Source: a virus
Taxonomy: Duplodnaviria > Heunggongvirae > Uroviricota > Caudoviricetes
Strand: one strand, 5' to 3'
DNA length: 9,906 bases
Virus record (IMG/VR): IMGVR_UViG_2563366903_000019
Positions 2,858-9,906 of this stretch are shown here, piece after piece (position 1 is the first letter of the stretch; every line of letters begins with the position of its first letter). The notes under the pieces were generated by a model. It worked only from the letters and a program-made list of their open reading frames with translations, had not been told where the DNA came from and ran no database searches. The translations under genes and the position numbers were made by a program.

Positions 2858-3157
2858 ATGAGAACATATTTATCTGGCTTGACTGCCAGCGGTTATGCAC
2901 ACCCCCAAATTATCCCCGGCGCTATTTATCTGGATAAGAACGGTAACAGAGTAACGGTAAAAGAACTGATGTTTGACCGAGTGTATTTTATCCGTGATGG
3001 CTATTCATTTCTTAGTTCGCTGAACGTGGAGATCTTTATTAGCAGATTCAGGCGGGAAATCCCGCTTTCCAGAAATAACCATGTGTCATGTATGGATGTT
3101 GATAAAAAACTACAGGAACTAAAAAACATGATTGCCGCGTGGAGAGAGCAGAAATGA
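2858..3157 (+). CDS. Hypothetical protein (99 aa), low-GC accessory gene
   Basis: Starts 6 nt after the upstream stop; its stop overlaps the primase ATG (ATGA at 3154-3157); low GC; no recognisable motif. Confidence 0.6.
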   Translation: MRTYLSGLTASGYAHPQIIPGAIYLDKNGNRVTVKELMFDRVYFIRDGYSFLSSLNVEIFISRFRREIPLSRNNHVSCMDVDKKLQELKNMIAAWREQK

Positions 3158-5277
3158 AAAAAGCGCCAAATTTAAAACACCAGCCACGTGACAAAATGAC
3201 GGAAGTCATCATTTTTGCGGGTAGTGATGCGTGGGCACATGCGAAGCAGTGGCAGGAACAGGACGGGCGACTGGCTGGCGACAGCGTGCCTCCTGTCTGG
3301 CTTGGAGAGCAACAACTTGCCGAACTGGATAAGCTGCAAATTGTGCCGGAAGGCCGAAAATCAGTACGCATATTCAGGGCCGGACATCTTGAGCCAGTAA
3401 TGATCAAGGCGATTGGTCAGAAGCTGGCGGCGGCAGGCGTACAGGATGCAAATTTTTACCCTGATGGAATGCACGGTCAGGAGGTGGAGAACTGGCGCGA
3501 ATATCTAGCCCGTGAGCGGCAGAATCTTTCTGATGGTCTGGTTATTGAGTTTCCGGTAAAGAAAAAAGATACCGGAAGCCATAGCGATGACGAATTAAAG
3601 CCACGCGTTGAAAGTCGCGCCGATGGTGTTTTCTGGGTAACGCCCAAAGTGGATAAGCAGTCAGGCGAAATTATCCGGCCTGAGACGTGGTTATGTTCTC
3701 CGCTTGAACTACTGGGAACGGGGACGATCGGTAAAGAGCATTACCGCGTGATGCGCTGGAAAAAAACCGCAAACCATGAAGTCATCACAATGGCGATCCC
3801 GTGTGGTGGTATCGGCGACCGTGACGGCTGGCGGTTACTTAAAGATCACGGGCTGAACGTGACAACCAACGGCAAATACAGGGCAATCCTGGCGGACTGG
3901 ATGCAGTTAAGCGGAAGCCATGAGGAATGGCAGTTAAGCACAACAACGGGCTGGCATTTTGGCGCGTACATCATGCCGGACGGTTCGATCATTGGTGAAT
4001 CTGAAAAACCGATCCTGTTTACCGGAAAAAGCGCCGCGATTAACGGTTATTCCGTGGCGGGCACGGCGGATGGCTGGCGCGACAGCGTGGCGCGTCTGGC
4101 TGGCGGTAATGCCTCAATGATGCTGGGTGTGGCAACGTCACTGGCAGCGCCTTTAATTGGCCTTGTGGGTGCTGACGGCTTCGGGGTGCATCTTTTCGAA
4201 CAGTCATCGGCAGGTAAGACCACCACGCAGAACATCGCATCAAGTTTATGGGGAGAGCCGGACGCGCAGCGGCTGACCTGGTACGGCACGGCGTTAGGTA
4301 TTGCCAATGAGGCCGAGGCCCATAATGACGGGCTTTTACCACTGGATGAGATAGGCCAGGCCGGAAATGCGCGGGAAGTGTCAACGTCTGCTTATACGCT
4401 GTTTAACGGTTCAGGGAAATTGCAGGGGGCGAAGGATGGCGGCAACAGGGAGATCAAACACTGGCGAACGGTGGCAATCAGCACCGGAGAAATGGACGTT
4501 GAGACATTCCTCAAAAGTGAGGGGATAAAAGTTAAGGCGGGGCAGCTTGTCCGACTGCTTAACGTTCCGATGGAAAAAGCCACGAAATTTCACGAATACA
4601 GCAACGGTAAGGAACATGCTGACGCGTTAAAGGATGCCTGGACAGCAAATCACGGGGCGGCGGGTCGTGAGTGGGTTAAATGGCTGGCAGGCCACCAGCA
4701 GGAGGCAAAGGATACGGTAAGGGAATGCCGCGAACGGTGGCGCAACCTGATACCGGAGAGCTACGGCGAGCAGGTCCACCGCGTGGGTGAACGTTTCGCC
4801 ATACTGGAGGCCGCGCTTGTGCTTTCCGGTCATGTAACTGGCTGGGTCGTGCAGGAATGCCGCGACGCGATACAGCATAACTTTAATGCCTGGGTGAAGG
4901 AGTTCGGCACGGGTAACAGGGAATTTAAACAGATGGTTGAACAGGCTGAGGCGTTTTTGTCGTCGTTTGGGTTTAGCCGCTACCTTCCGTACCCCAATAC
5001 AGATGAGCGTGATTTACCGATTAAAGAGCTTGCCGGATACAGAAAAGGGAGCATTCGCAACGAAGATGACGAGATGCGCTATTACACGTTCCCGCACGTG
5101 TTTGAGAGTGAGATAGCGAAGGGATTTAATCCGGCGCATTTTGCGCGTGCCCTGGATGCTGCCGGAATGCTGGAGAAGGGAAGCGATCGCCGATACAAAA
5201 AAAAGGCGCTGGGCAAGATTGGGGGTAAGCAGCATGTTTTTTACGTGCTGATGTTCCAGCCTGATGATGAAGATTAA
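3154..5277 (+). CDS. Primase/helicase-like replication initiator (P-loop NTPase; DUF927/P4-alpha-like Pri-Rep class)
   Basis: About 707-aa ORF from ATG 3154 (SD GGAGAGAG at 3141-3148); ORF track gives a GTG at 3139. Walker A-like EQSSAGKTT; position immediately upstream of the iteron array matches satellite replication proteins. Confidence 0.8.
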   Translation: MKKAPNLKHQPRDKMTEVIIFAGSDAWAHAKQWQEQDGRLAGDSVPPVWLGEQQLAELDKLQIVPEGRKSVRIFRAGHLEPVMIKAIGQKLAAAGVQDANFYPDGMHGQEVENWREYLARERQNLSDGLVIEFPVKKKDTGSHSDDELKPRVESRADGVFWVTPKVDKQSGEIIRPETWLCSPLELLGTGTIGKEHYRVMRWKKTANHEVITMAIPCGGIGDRDGWRLLKDHGLNVTTNGKYRAILADWMQLSGSHEEWQLSTTTGWHFGAYIMPDGSIIGESEKPILFTGKSAAINGYSVAGTADGWRDSVARLAGGNASMMLGVATSLAAPLIGLVGADGFGVHLFEQSSAGKTTTQNIASSLWGEPDAQRLTWYGTALGIANEAEAHNDGLLPLDEIGQAGNAREVSTSAYTLFNGSGKLQGAKDGGNREIKHWRTVAISTGEMDVETFLKSEGIKVKAGQLVRLLNVPMEKATKFHEYSNGKEHADALKDAWTANHGAAGREWVKWLAGHQQEAKDTVRECRERWRNLIPESYGEQVHRVGERFAILEAALVLSGHVTGWVVQECRDAIQHNFNAWVKEFGTGNREFKQMVEQAEAFLSSFGFSRYLPYPNTDERDLPIKELAGYRKGSIRNEDDEMRYYTFPHVFESEIAKGFNPAHFARALDAAGMLEKGSDRRYKKKALGKIGGKQHVFYVLMFQPDDED

Positions 5278-6829: not shown

Positions 6830-7036
6830 ATGGCTGAAGAGAAAAAAGGCGGTGTTTCGGTGTACATAAGCCCCGACATCGTGAAGGCGCTCAAGGAACG
6901 CCACCAGCAGAACGTAAAAGCAGGCATTGCGGCAGGACTTGATCCGCTGGCGATGGTTGAGCCGTCAACAGGCTGGCAGGTACGCGCCTATTTACGCGCG
7001 GCGCTGGGTATGAATCAGGTTCACGGGGGTGAATAA
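6830..7036 (+). CDS. Hypothetical protein (68 aa), first gene of capsid operon
   Basis: ORF with AGAGG about 11 nt upstream; its stop overlaps the capsid gene start (TAATG); no recognisable motif and no cysteines. Confidence 0.55.
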   Translation: MAEEKKGGVSVYISPDIVKALKERHQQNVKAGIAAGLDPLAMVEPSTGWQVRAYLRAALGMNQVHGGE

Positions 7037-8091
7037 TGACAGTAAAAGCAATAGCACTTAACACTAACCAGCTTTTTGCGTACCTGAATCGCGAGGATAT
7101 TGCGGAATTTAAATTCAGTCCGCTGTTTACCGCGCTGTTTTTCCCGAACGTGGCGACATTCAACACACAGGACATCATGTTAGATAACCTGGATATTGAA
7201 GAAGTCACTATGTCGGCGTTTTGTTCGCCTATGGTGGGTAGCCAGGTTCAGCGCGATAAAGGGTACGAAACAAGCATTATTCGCCCTGGCTACATGAAGC
7301 CAAAACACGAAATCGATCCATTAAAAACAATAATGCGCATGGCTGGAGAAGATCCAGCACAGCTTAACGACCCTACCTACCGCCGTATGCGCCTGATTAC
7401 TGGCAACATGCGCCGCCAGATAAACGCCATTAAAGCGCGCGTGGAATGGCTGGCGGTGAATGCGATAACGACCGGAAAAAACATCATTGAGGGCGAAGGC
7501 ATAGAACGCTATGAAATCGACTGGAAGATCCCAAGTAAAAATATCGCCAGACAGGGACATGGCAAAAAGTGGTCAGAGGCAGATAAGGAAACACACGATC
7601 CAATCTATGACATCGAGCTTTATGCTGATCAGGCTGGTTGCCCCGCAAACGTCATGATTATGGGCGCTGAGGTATGGCGAACGTTACGCAGCTTTAAAAA
7701 ATTCCGTGAGCTGTACGATCTTTCCCGTGGTTCAGAGTCCGCCGCAGAGCTGGCCTGTAAAAACCTGGGCGAAGTGGTGAGCTTTAAAGGCTATCTGGGC
7801 GATATTGCCCTTATCGTCTATTCCGGCAAATACGCCGACAGCGACGGCACAGAAAAATATTTCCTTGAGCCTGATTTGCTTGTCCTGGGCAACACCAACA
7901 ATAAAGGGCTGGTGGCCTATGGTGCGATTATGGATCAGGACGCAGTAAGAACGGGGGCAACGCAAAACATGTACTACCCGAAAAACTGGATTGAGGACGG
8001 AGATCCGGCGATTGAGTACGTGCAGACGCACAGCGCACCGCAGCCGGTTCCGGCAGATATTCGCAAATTTGTTACTGTCAAAATTGCTTAA
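7036..8091 (+). CDS. Major capsid protein, lambda gpE family (HK97 fold)
   Basis: 351-aa product aligns by eye with lambda gpE as recalled: FKFSPLFTALFF vs FKFDPLFLRLFF, PGYMKPKHEIDP vs PGYVKPKHEVNP, EDPAQLNDPTYRRMRLITGNMR vs EDPQNLADPAYRRRRIIMQNMR, YPKNWIEDGDPAIEYVQTHSAP vs YPKNWVTTGDPAREFTMIQSAP. Confidence 0.9.
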   Translation: MTVKAIALNTNQLFAYLNREDIAEFKFSPLFTALFFPNVATFNTQDIMLDNLDIEEVTMSAFCSPMVGSQVQRDKGYETSIIRPGYMKPKHEIDPLKTIMRMAGEDPAQLNDPTYRRMRLITGNMRRQINAIKARVEWLAVNAITTGKNIIEGEGIERYEIDWKIPSKNIARQGHGKKWSEADKETHDPIYDIELYADQAGCPANVMIMGAEVWRTLRSFKKFRELYDLSRGSESAAELACKNLGEVVSFKGYLGDIALIVYSGKYADSDGTEKYFLEPDLLVLGNTNNKGLVAYGAIMDQDAVRTGATQNMYYPKNWIEDGDPAIEYVQTHSAPQPVPADIRKFVTVKIA

Positions 8092-8102
8092 CGGGGGATT
8101 CT

Positions 8103-8438
8103 ATGGACACTCCATACATTGAGTTATTTGCAGGCAGTCAGCAGGTCGCCACGACGCTGGTACATTTTGCCGCTGATGCTGGCGTTATCCAGGAATTTAC
8201 CCCGCTGATGCTGGCGGACAATGGCGAGTTTAAGCCGTGGGATGGTCAGGAATCTGGCAAGGCTGTTTATCTGACTTCGTACCCCGTGGACACGTCAAAG
8301 CAGAAATCAGCACAGTGTTACAAGACGGGGATATTTAATATCGCCGCCGTAAACTGGCCTGAGAGCGCCGACACTGACGCGAAAAAATGCGCCGCCTTTG
8401 CGGGTTCTGGCGTATCCGTTCAGCCGCTGGCGCGATAA
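8103..8438 (+). CDS. Head decoration protein, lambda gpD-like
   Basis: 111-aa product with TPLMLADNGEFKPWDG and CYKTGIFNIAAVNWPESADTDAKKCAAFAGSGVSV, matching lambda gpD (TPLMLDTSSRKLVAWDG ... [36 protein letters not shown]). SD ACGGGGGA upstream. Confidence 0.85.
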   Translation: MDTPYIELFAGSQQVATTLVHFAADAGVIQEFTPLMLADNGEFKPWDGQESGKAVYLTSYPVDTSKQKSAQCYKTGIFNIAAVNWPESADTDAKKCAAFAGSGVSVQPLAR

Positions 8439-8450
8439 GCAGGGGAAACG

Positions 8451-8864
8451 ATGGCAACGAATGAAAGCATCATGGCGCTACCGCTGGCGAGTAAATTTAA
8501 AGCAGAAGCGCGGGCAATGGCTGACAGAGGTTTATCAACCTACGAGGCCGTATATCAACTCAACAAACTGGAAGAACAGGACAAGCCGCGCGCTGATGCG
8601 ATTATGGCGCTTCATGAACATAACGACTATCAGCCGCTGTTACGTGCAATGGCAAACGTGCCATGTATTAGCGTCGATAATGCTCGTGAAATCCTGAACA
8701 TGACCATAGAGCAGGAGCGCCCAAAGGTTGCACCAGAGCTTACCGCAGCCTTTGAAAACTTTATGGACATGCACAGCCCGCAAGCCGTATCAGCTGGCAT
8801 GGCGTACGATGGCAGAAACCAGGGCGATGACGGCGACATCGATCGCATGCTGAAAACCATCTGA
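8451..8864 (+). CDS. Hypothetical protein (137 aa), last gene of capsid operon
   Basis: ORF with AGGGGA 4 nt upstream, followed directly by a terminator; acidic C-terminus; occupies the position lambda gives to FI but shows no similarity to it that I can see. Confidence 0.6.
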   Translation: MATNESIMALPLASKFKAEARAMADRGLSTYEAVYQLNKLEEQDKPRADAIMALHEHNDYQPLLRAMANVPCISVDNAREILNMTIEQERPKVAPELTAAFENFMDMHSPQAVSAGMAYDGRNQGDDGDIDRMLKTI

Positions 8865-8868
8865 GACA

Positions 8869-8894
8869 AGGCCGGAGAAATCCGGCTTTTTTTT
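8869..8894 (+). terminator. Rho-independent terminator
   Basis: Stem GCCGGA / TCCGGC with loop GAAA, followed by T8; nearly identical in sequence to the terminator at 6595-6618. Confidence 0.65.
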
Positions 8895-8960
8895 ACGGGT
8901 CCTTTCCGGCATATGGACCCGTTACGGGGCGGCGACCTCGCGGTTTTTCGCTATTTATGA
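8895..8960. other. cos site: lambda-like cosQ-cosN core (cosN GGGCGGCGACCT at 8927-8938)
   Basis: ACGGGTCCTTTCCGG ... GTTACG GGGCGGCGACCT CGCGGTTTTTCGCTATTTATGA; the last 33 nt match the left end of lambda (GGGCGGCGACCTCGCGGGTTTTCGCTATTTATGA) at 32/33 from memory, and the upstream part resembles the lambda right end. Confidence 0.75.
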
Positions 8961-9031
8961 GCCTTTTCAGGGGGGGGTGGTGGTTTTGTTGTTTGCTCTA
9001 TCTTTATGAATGAAAAGGGAAAGATGCAAAC

Positions 9032-9069
9032 AATACACCAACCTGAAGCAGTAATTAAGTTGGTGTATT
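9032..9069. promoter_or_regulatory. 11-bp perfect inverted repeat in cosB-equivalent region (candidate TerS binding site or 5' hairpin)
   Basis: AATACACCAAC (9032-9042) and GTTGGTGTATT (9059-9069) separated by 16 nt, abutting the ATG at 9071. Confidence 0.4.
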
Positions 9070-9070
9070 A

Positions 9071-9613
9071 ATGAAATCGCACCTGATGAACAAAAAAAAC
9101 ATGGCGAAAAGCTGCCGTGTAAGTGCGACAGCGTTCGACAAGTGGGGAGTGACTCCCGTTGAACGTAAAGGCCGTGAGGCGTTTTACGATGTTGCCAGCG
9201 TGATAGACAATAGGGTTAACAATGCAATTAGCCAGCTTACAAACGACAAAGGCGATATTGATGATGATGAACTCTTACGAGTCAGGATCAGATTACTGAC
9301 AGCACAGGCGGAGGCGCAGGAACTTAAAAACGAGCGCGATCGCGGTGACGTGATCGATACTGAGTTTTGCCTGTACGCGCTTTCAAAGCTGGCGAGTCAG
9401 ATTTCATCAATCATGGACAGCCTCCCGCTTACTATGCAAAGGAGCTTCCCACAGATTACCCCCGCCATGCTGGATAGGCTTAAAAGGGAAGTGGTTAAAG
9501 CCTGTAATGCCAGTGCCAGAGTTGCCGACAACCTCCCACAGATACTGGCTGATTACTTGAAAGAAACAACCGGAAACGTACCGGAAAAGTTGCAGCCGAA
9601 TAAAGATAAGTAA
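9071..9613 (+). CDS. Terminase small subunit, lambda Nu1-like
   Basis: C-terminal two-thirds align with lambda Nu1 as recalled: LLTAQAEAQELKNERDRGDVIDTEFCLYALSKLASQISSIMDSLPLTMQRSFP vs LTRAQADAQELKNARDSAEVVETAFCTFVLSRIAGEIASILDGLPLSVQRRFP. The N-terminal HTH region is divergent. Alternative start at ATG 9086 (MNKKN..., matching Nu1 MEVNKK...). Confidence 0.85.
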   Translation: MKSHLMNKKNMAKSCRVSATAFDKWGVTPVERKGREAFYDVASVIDNRVNNAISQLTNDKGDIDDDELLRVRIRLLTAQAEAQELKNERDRGDVIDTEFCLYALSKLASQISSIMDSLPLTMQRSFPQITPAMLDRLKREVVKACNASARVADNLPQILADYLKETTGNVPEKLQPNKDK

Positions 9614-9624
9614 CGTAGTACGCT

Positions 9625-9906
9625 ATGACTGAATCCGAAATACTGCGATTAATCCGCCGCGTCTCTGGAATCAGCCAGCAGGCTGACGAACAGACCACGC
9701 AGCCGGACAGCGTGACAGCCGAAAACTATGCGCGTGTTGTTGCTGAGGTGATGCGCCGTGATGGTATAGAACTTAATGGCGTGGATATGCGCAACATACG
9801 AACCAGAGTTCTTGAGTTGCTGGCCTACCGTCGCCGCGTGGAGATGTATCGGGAGAAGGAGAAAATAACGTACCACTGGAAGAAGCCGGAGCGGTTGCGG
9901 CGGTAA
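9625..9906 (+). CDS. Hypothetical protein (93 aa) downstream of terS
   Basis: Complete ORF ending at the window edge, 11 nt after the terS stop; weak SD; Arg-rich C-terminus; not similar to the lambda gpA N-terminus as I recall it. Confidence 0.5.
   Translation: MTESEILRLIRRVSGISQQADEQTTQPDSVTAENYARVVAEVMRRDGIELNGVDMRNIRTRVLELLAYRRRVEMYREKEKITYHWKKPERLRR

Follow-up and report, generated by a model that had tools for sequence, protein, structure and literature searches.

Recent summaries of satellite packaging list four strategies: use of a cohesive-end site (cos) shared with the helper phage, a small terminase subunit (TerS) acting with Ppi in Staphylococcus aureus pathogenicity islands (SaPIs), the Rpp proteins, and the complete module of cf-PICIs, the phage-inducible chromosomal islands that form capsids. 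Rpp proteins work through a heterocomplex with TerS (PMC6739421); they depend on the helper TerS to recruit the large terminase subunit (TerL) and have lost the C-terminal tail of TerS (PMC9026076). Two Escherichia coli phage-inducible chromosomal islands (PICIs), EcCIIHE3034 and EcCI18098, have been reported to 'encode TerS', a protein that was not studied in that work (Fillol-Salom et al. 2018; PMC6092414), and no paper characterising this protein was found in the literature searched. Here, we describe a terS gene at positions 9071-9613 (plus strand) of a 9,906-nucleotide stretch of viral DNA (IMG/VR record IMGVR_UViG_2563366903_000019; hereafter the window). The island in the window is the same type of element as EcCIIHE3034 and EcCI18098, which share its attachment (att) site between cspD and clpS and its gene order (PMC6092414; locus L016). 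The TerS of EcCIIHE3034 is identical to that of the window over 174 of 174 aligned residues (the first 174 of the 180 in the window protein), and the gene itself is not new. Its product is very probably the packaging-specificity determinant for the satellite cosB, a role suggested by the presence of a full-length TerS without TerL, a co-conserved cosB, exchangeability with rpp, agreement with the helper in the parts of cos that TerL reads, and purifying selection.

The open reading frame (ORF) runs from ATG to TAA and encodes 180 residues that match the Pfam family PF07471 (Phage_Nu1; residues 33-148, E=2.3e-23, with a score of 83 bits where the cut-off is 30) and the PHROG 57 family 'terminase small subunit' (residues 1-175, E=2.9e-53). 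Profile alignment with hhalign to lambda Nu1 gave a probability of 99.9% across 161 columns (residues 6-166 against 3-180). Judged by these matches, the product is a genuine full-length Nu1-family TerS, and a preliminary description of this DNA, which had proposed a Nu1-like TerS at exactly these coordinates, was right on this point. Overall identity to lambda Nu1 is 35%, while the best phage match is gp1 of N15 (46%). The protein has the same layout as lambda gpNu1 and, like it, is encoded immediately after cosN and cosB. Residues 1-55 (9071-9235, plus strand) correspond to a winged helix-turn-helix DNA-binding domain (DBD) of the N15/D3 type, as judged by sequence comparison, with SATAFDKW as the candidate recognition helix. 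Residues 69-125 (9275-9445, plus strand) align to the self-assembly region of lambda Nu1 as a central helical core, the best-kept block in comparisons with phage TerS, and residues 126-180 (9446-9610, plus strand) comprise a segment aligned to the gpA-binding tail of lambda followed by a satellite-specific extension of 12-14 residues.

The preliminary description had held the C-terminal, gpA-interacting region to be strongly conserved and the N-terminus to be divergent. The first of these claims fails: the core retains 30 of 57 residues of lambda Nu1 (53%), versus 18 of 52 in the DBD (35%, with ~20 gap columns) and 13 of 41 in tail residues 126-166 (32%), beyond which the 12-14-residue extension is absent from lambda. 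Within the core, the assembly sub-region is 51% identical to lambda and 61% identical to phage PhiR12, giving a range of 51-61% against phage TerS cores. An alignment check for the domain-biased divergence that had been proposed found weak heterogeneity in identity among four segments (chi-square p=0.03) and no difference between the N-terminus and the tail (Fisher p=0.83). By this alignment, it is the oligomerisation core and not the gpA-binding end that is conserved relative to lambda Nu1.

The claim of a divergent N-terminus holds against lambda and no further, as the domain appears to be of the already known N15 type. It is 55-56% identical to the DBD of N15 gp1, residues 6-52 share 59.6% identity with TerS from many D3/F10-like phages of Pseudomonas (tblastn), and SATAFDKW agrees with the N15 helix SVQAFDKW at six of eight positions. 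Relative to the lambda domain, that of the satellite is of another subclass and ~14 residues shorter. The C-terminal half is instead nearest to the Nu1 proteins of two E. coli phages, PhiR5_1 (57%) and PhiR12 (53%), which have N-termini with no relation to that of the satellite protein, and it also differs from N15, in which this half is lambda-like (78%, versus 42% for the satellite). Such domain mosaicism is normal in the Nu1 family. For example, lambda and N15 are 31% identical in the DBD and 80% in the tail, while lambda and 21 are 53% identical in the DBD and 32% in the tail.

Upstream of terS lies a lambda-type cos site. The cosQ-side flank GGGTCCTTTCCGGCATATGGACCCGTTACG occupies 8897-8926 (plus strand), and its first seven bases, GGGTCCT (8897-8903), we take by position to be the counterpart of lambda cosQ. 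Counted from the preceding C, the 31-nucleotide flank (8896-8926) is identical at 31 of 31 positions to that of PhiR5_1, the phage whose Nu1 best matches the C-terminal half of the satellite protein, and it differs from those of PhiR12 and the 21-like prophage of CFT073, which served as a further comparator. The cosN cohesive-end sequence GGGCGGCGACCT (8927-8938, plus strand) is identical to that of lambda, as are 21 of the next 22 bases (8939-8960), so that 33 of 34 positions match the lambda left end. From +35 onwards, the sequence is unrelated to lambda, and the terS start codon follows at +145 from the cohesive end.

Between these points lie three putative TerS-binding elements. An R3-like 18-mer, GGTGGTTTTGTTGTTTGC, is located at 8979-8996 (+53 to +70, plus strand) and is unique in the window. 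An inverted R2-like copy, GGTTGGTGTATTGTTTGC, lies at 9026-9043 (+100 to +117, minus strand) and matches it at 14 of 18 positions, a score reached by 2 of 5000 shuffles. A direct partial copy resembling R1, GTTGGTGTATT, lies at 9059-9069 (+133 to +143, plus strand), ends two bases before the start codon and forms a perfect 11-nucleotide inverted repeat with 9032-9042 (2 of 5000 shuffles). At up to one mismatch, the R1-like motif occurs three times in the window (1 of 200 shuffles), and the two exact occurrences are the cosB copies. The order R3, inverted R2, R1 is that of lambda, although the R sequences themselves differ, and has been described for lambda, 21 and phi80 (PMC9026076) and for the 'Monarch' N15-like prophages (PMC4669245). 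The satellite cosB resembles the tripartite cosB of the Monarch prophages as far as their description allows comparison; their recognition helix is said to equal that of N15, whereas the satellite helix is not identical to it. N15 itself has a single R3, GAGGTTGTTGTT at bp 48-59, of which the GTTGTT core is the critical part (PMC4669245), and the R3-like site of the satellite contains the same core.

The R3-like element lies close to the position of lambda R3 (bp 50-65) and is found at +53 or +54 in each of the six terS-type satellites compared (from E. coli, Enterobacter and Kosakonia), whose TerS DBDs are 73% identical. Both the position and the sequence of the site are thus kept across genera in which the DBD is the best-conserved part of TerS. 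The tract of G residues and GGT units that precedes it (8970-8978) varies, reading G8-TGGTGG in the window, G6-TGGTGGTGG in IHE3034 and strain N10, and G3-(TGG)4 in O157. The window tract is one nucleotide shorter, which places R3 at +53 instead of +54; the missing base could be genuine variation or an error made in sequencing a homopolymer.

Sister islands that share the att site show no difference from the window through cosQ and cosN up to +34 and depart from it beyond this point. In one of them (L006), a different cosB is followed by a 144-residue RppA in the slot of terS; this rppA locus, which was our RppA comparator, is 97.7% identical in DNA to rppA of CFT073, and the published contact residues R21, T22, R25 and K29 are present. 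Another, from E. coli SCU-172 (L005, 11671-12240), has neither terS nor rpp and a cosB identical to that of PhiR12 at 75 of 76 positions. It also contains a second, inverted cos ~500 bp downstream, whose cosB has the GGTGGTTGTTGTT motif of the terS type, an arrangement that resembles the two cos sites reported for EcCICFT073. At the cspD-clpS site of E. coli MSHS 133 (L021, 380-3043), an island has terS and cosB with a second tail allele and the cohesive end GGGCGGCAGACG; here the cassette adjoins a gene for a ClpP-like protease/major-capsid fusion rather than the pair of E-like and D-like genes; packaging cassettes and capsid modules are thus combined independently. In these alignments, three cassettes (terS with its cosB, rpp with its cosB, and a phage cosB alone) interchange at a constant junction 34 bp into cos.

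The Rpp proteins of EcCICFT073-type PICIs share with the satellite TerS the slot after the island cos and, presumably, the task of offering the helper terminase a cosB specific to the satellite (PMC6739421). They occur in sister islands that are almost identical otherwise. In contrast to the 180-residue satellite TerS, whose core and tail align to lambda 84-180, they have 135-153 residues, lack the TerS core and tail, and require the helper TerS. Comparison of the satellite TerS with RppA gave a BLASTP E-value of 1.3 and an hhalign probability of 0.1%, and on this measure the satellite protein is not an Rpp. The preliminary description was right to place the gene in a satellite, and its proposal that packaging is redirected to a satellite cosB is probably correct, given the adjacent cosN, R-like repeats that are unique to cosB, the cross-genus position of the R3-like site, and the replacement of terS and its cosB by rppA and another cosB.

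The satellite TerS forms its own lineage of ~80 clusters at 74-99% identity in E. coli and Shigella, with a side branch at 57-60% identity in Enterobacter, Citrobacter and their relatives. Members of this branch occur in satellites embedded in their helpers, inside the capsid gene of lambdoid prophages, where the gene order is the same (capsid, decoration protein, small ORF, cos, TerS). Conservation in the lineage is highest in the DBD and the core (mean entropy ~0.18 bits) and lowest in the tail (0.57 bits), of which E. coli has two alleles, ASARVADNLPQILADYL and ACTKLDENIPRMLSDYL. The ratio of nonsynonymous to synonymous substitution rates (dN/dS) is 0.09-0.19 overall, 0.06-0.28 in the core and 0.17-0.24 in the tail, and purifying selection acts on all parts of the protein. 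In the tail, dS is raised along with the divergence, a sign of ancient alleles and not of decay. Among 5426 complete E. coli genomes, terS was found in 768, in 759 of them over at least 80% of the gene length, while the rppA cassette was found in 97, making terS about eight times as frequent. In O157:H7, the gene is present between roxA and phoQ.

These data also bear on the idea that terS is a captured phage late gene without an essential role and that the island is packaged simply through its cos. PICIs and helper-embedded PICIs often acquire late genes (PMC10111431), the EcCICFT073 capsid and decoration genes c1499 and c1500, which are homologous to those of the island described here, were reported to be dispensable for transfer and interference (PMC6092414), and the SCU-172 island has a phage-type cosB with neither terS nor rpp. 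However, the separate lineage without a close phage relative (46% at best), the retention of the gene with its cognate cosB across genera, and the low dN/dS and near-complete length in 759 genomes make such a passive role improbable, as does the observation that an N15-type cosB is not used by the terminases of lambda or 21 (PMC4669245).

Satellites embedded in their helpers allow the cos of each to be compared directly with that of the resident phage. An integrase-based search for such elements gave two relevant loci, one of them without terS, and two terS-bearing embedded satellites were recovered, in Kosakonia (L018) and in E. coli PK8275 (L023). In Kosakonia, the helper Nu1 and gpA are 86% and 88% identical to those of lambda; satellite and helper agree at 30 of 31 positions in the cosQ flank and have an unusual cohesive end, GGGCGGCAGACT, in common, while their cosB sequences are unrelated. 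In PK8275, the helper Nu1, gpA and cos are essentially those of lambda, and the satellite matches its helper at 29 of 30 positions of the cosQ flank, has its own cosB, and carries the cohesive end GGGCGTCAGGCG, which differs from that of the helper at five positions. Both helpers have lambda-type gpA N-termini, with 48 of 48 and 40 of 48 residues identical to lambda gpA. In these embedded satellites, then, the parts of cos predicted to be read by TerL track the helper and cosB does not. The PK8275 satellite (504-12574 of its locus) lies within gene E of a prophage that is almost purely of lambda type and carries, besides terS, a TIR-domain gene and a gene of an abortive-infection family. A further element of the same integrase clade, located inside a lambda-like capsid gene in Cedecea sp. 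(L019, 9837-20092), has no Nu1-like TerS detectable by tblastn, so embedded satellites, too, differ in their packaging determinant.

Taken with the published behaviour of N15-type terminases, these patterns suggest how the satellite protein may work. The N15-type winged-helix domain would read the satellite-specific cosB (R3, inverted R2 and the R1-like element), which starts 53 bp from the cohesive end, and the rest of TerS, most simply through its retained C-terminal tail, would bring the helper TerL to the lambda-type cosN and cosQ of the island. Concatemeric island DNA would then be cut and packaged in place of helper DNA, or in competition with it, with possible interference with the helper. 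DNA with an N15-type cos is not packaged by lambda-type or 21-type terminase, and a chimeric TerS that joins the N15 DBD to the C-terminus of lambda is functional with lambda TerL (PMC4669245), so an island with such a cosB would need its own TerS. Direct binding of TerL by the satellite tail, which may make the protein independent of the helper TerS, is favoured here, since the satellite has kept the tail under constraint, whereas Rpp has lost it. We place the probability that the satellite TerS delivers the helper TerL to the satellite cos, with direct recruitment as the favoured route, at roughly 0.55.

A number of observations count against this model. The tail is 29-32% identical to those of lambda and N15, and its best match, to PhiR5_1, reaches 21 of 42 residues (50%). 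Its 13 identities with lambda over 42 positions equal the number shared by the tails of 21 and lambda (13 of 42), a pair with distinct TerL-binding specificities, and the satellite tail is no nearer to lambda. The tails of the embedded satellites agree with the Nu1 tails of their resident helpers at 14 of 42 and 16 of 42 positions, and with each other at 14 of 42. The core of the R3-like site lies 5-8 bp farther from cosN than that of N15 R3, and in the E. coli satellites a search of the interval from the R3-like to the R2-like site, allowing up to one mismatch, gave no consensus site for integration host factor, a further difference from lambda. Induction of the prophages in their native strains gave almost no transfer of EcCIIHE3034 and EcCI18098 (<1 to 110 transductants), and no helper was found (PMC6092414). 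An AlphaFold2 model built from 22 satellite homologues has low confidence (predicted local distance difference test score, pLDDT, of 58), and a Foldseek search of the PDB with this model returned nothing below E=0.2, the weak top matches being MerR-family regulators. These tail comparisons also remove the ground on which the preliminary description had argued for plugging into the helper TerL, namely a conserved C-terminus. A satellite tail matched to the Nu1 tail of its helper was considered as a candidate and is rejected by both embedded cases.

The same tail comparisons are a point in favour of a scheme closer to that of Rpp, in which the satellite TerS would co-assemble with helper Nu1 through its core. 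The mixed oligomer would bind the satellite cosB by the satellite DBD, hold TerL by the helper tail and be drawn away from the helper cos, so that helper packaging would be poisoned, an alternative that the preliminary description had raised. The core is the best-conserved part relative to phage TerS (51-61%), terS occupies the same slot as rppA, and the heterocomplex formed by Rpp provides a precedent (PMC6739421). However, the satellite TerS has no sequence relation to Rpp, and Rpp contacts lambda TerS within residues 1-98 (for example, at Y50 and E65), a region whose counterpart in the satellite protein contains a deletion. In addition, a tail that is not needed would be expected to decay as it has in Rpp, whereas that of the satellite is under purifying selection. 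Co-assembly is the less likely arrangement, though a plausible one, and the most probable of the alternatives to direct recruitment.

The structural comparisons touch on another possibility, that the protein is mainly a DNA-binding regulator or a cos-occluding factor, acting in autoregulation or cos protection and not in terminase recruitment. The winged helix-turn-helix/MerR-like fold class is that of transcription factors, to which the weak Foldseek matches belong, and the R1-like element ends just ahead of the start codon. In the model, the DBD has the secondary structure helix/helix/beta-hairpin/helix, at a low pLDDT of 46-59. A sequence search of the PDB gave no match to the lambda Nu1 DBD (1J9I) or to RppC, a result that is uninformative because the solved Nu1 structures cover N-terminal fragments only and the satellite DBD belongs to the N15 subclass. 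Against a purely regulatory function stand the homology to TerS from end to end, assembly core and tail included, the location relative to cosN, which is that of a terminase gene, and the fact that R1 of lambda likewise lies close to the Nu1 start (PMC9026076). Such a function is accordingly very improbable.

If direct recruitment is correct, the satellite TerS is most likely the cos-phage counterpart of the SaPI TerS strategy and a same-slot alternative to the Rpp strategy. As in the pac-type SaPIs, the satellite encodes a TerS homologous to that of the helper type and no TerL, and it has a predicted recognition site of its own at which helper TerL may be redirected (Ubeda 2007; Ram 2012, summarised in 10.1101/2022.09.08.507074). 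The SaPI system differs in using headful (pac) packaging in a Gram-positive host, with a TerS of an unrelated family and Ppi as its companion, whereas the island is of the cos type with a Nu1-family protein; no candidate for a Ppi-like gene was identified in the island, for which no dedicated test was made. The cf-PICIs likewise encode a capsid protein and a TerS, but they carry a full set of capsid, protease, portal, connector and HNH-TerS-TerL genes, where the island has only E-like, D-like and TerS genes. A more far-reaching and tentative possibility, which we regard as unlikely, is a one-way packaging parasitism without helper TerS, in which an N15-type TerS and cosB, a pair that helper terminases of the lambda or 21 type could not read, are combined with a tail adapted to binding TerL from several lambdoid lineages. 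With its own E-like/D-like shell, the island would then be intermediate between Rpp-type PICIs and cf-PICIs and would depend on the helper for no more than portal, protease, TerL and tail.

The window extends from the initial base of the integrase ORF to the stop codon of the last ORF, and the att sites and ~1.3 kb of island DNA before clpS, as seen in strain N10, lie outside it because it ends at the terminal ORFs. As assigned from ORF, Pfam and PHROG analysis, co-oriented genes on the plus strand encode an integrase (1-1239), an AlpA-type regulator, an Icd-like protein and a DUF4222 protein, followed by a DUF927 primase/helicase (3139-5277), a single-stranded DNA-binding protein and a PerC-like activator. 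A major capsid protein similar to lambda gpE (7036-8091, plus strand; 43% identity) and a gpD-like decoration protein (8103-8438, plus strand) precede a 137-residue ORF of PHROG 1999 between the decoration gene and cos (8451-8864, plus strand). The one other hit of this ORF is weak (E=7e-10) and falls on the C-terminal end of a profile for head-maturation proteases; the product may be a scaffold-like protein, although as a candidate for a Nu3-like scaffold it shared no similarity with lambda Nu3 in BLASTP. The Enterobacter embedded satellites have an AlpA-like helix-turn-helix protein in this slot. A terminator-like hairpin with a T-run (8868-8889, plus strand; an inverted repeat with a 9-bp stem containing five G-C pairs) closes the capsid, decoration and 137-residue ORF operon upstream of cos.

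Directly 3' of terS, a 93-residue ORF (9625-9906, plus strand; PHROG 1561, no Pfam match) fills the slot of the phage TerL gene and is present in both terS-type and rppA-type sister islands. As a possible mimic of the gpA N-terminus it was rejected, since it has no similarity to that region of lambda gpA. In both the window and the complete N10 island, this ORF stands where an overlapping TerL gene would follow a Nu1-type gene, the sole respect in which the locus departs from the Nu1 type and one that is expected because the element is a satellite. No portal, protease, TerL or tail genes are present in the gene set of the window. In E. coli strain N10, an element 96% identical to the window lies between cspD/yljB and clpS, and this complete island contains no portal, protease, TerL, tail or lysis genes. 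The size of ~10 kb, the int, alpA and primase/replication genes, the unidirectional gene order, the dedicated att site and the absence of a full virion and lysis set are all features of Gram-negative PICIs, and the element is a PICI-type satellite of E. coli with a predicted dependence on a helper.

Rpp is the only packaging-hijack mechanism worked out for lambda-dependent enterobacterial islands, and yet the terS cassette is about eight times commoner than rppA in E. coli. The comparisons made here offer two leads for its study: a candidate binding site, composed of the three R-like elements at 8979-9069, and a candidate class of helpers, the PhiR5_1-like lambdoid phages. With its abundance and its clear candidate cognate site, the satellite terS may thus represent a testable alternative to the Rpp mechanism.

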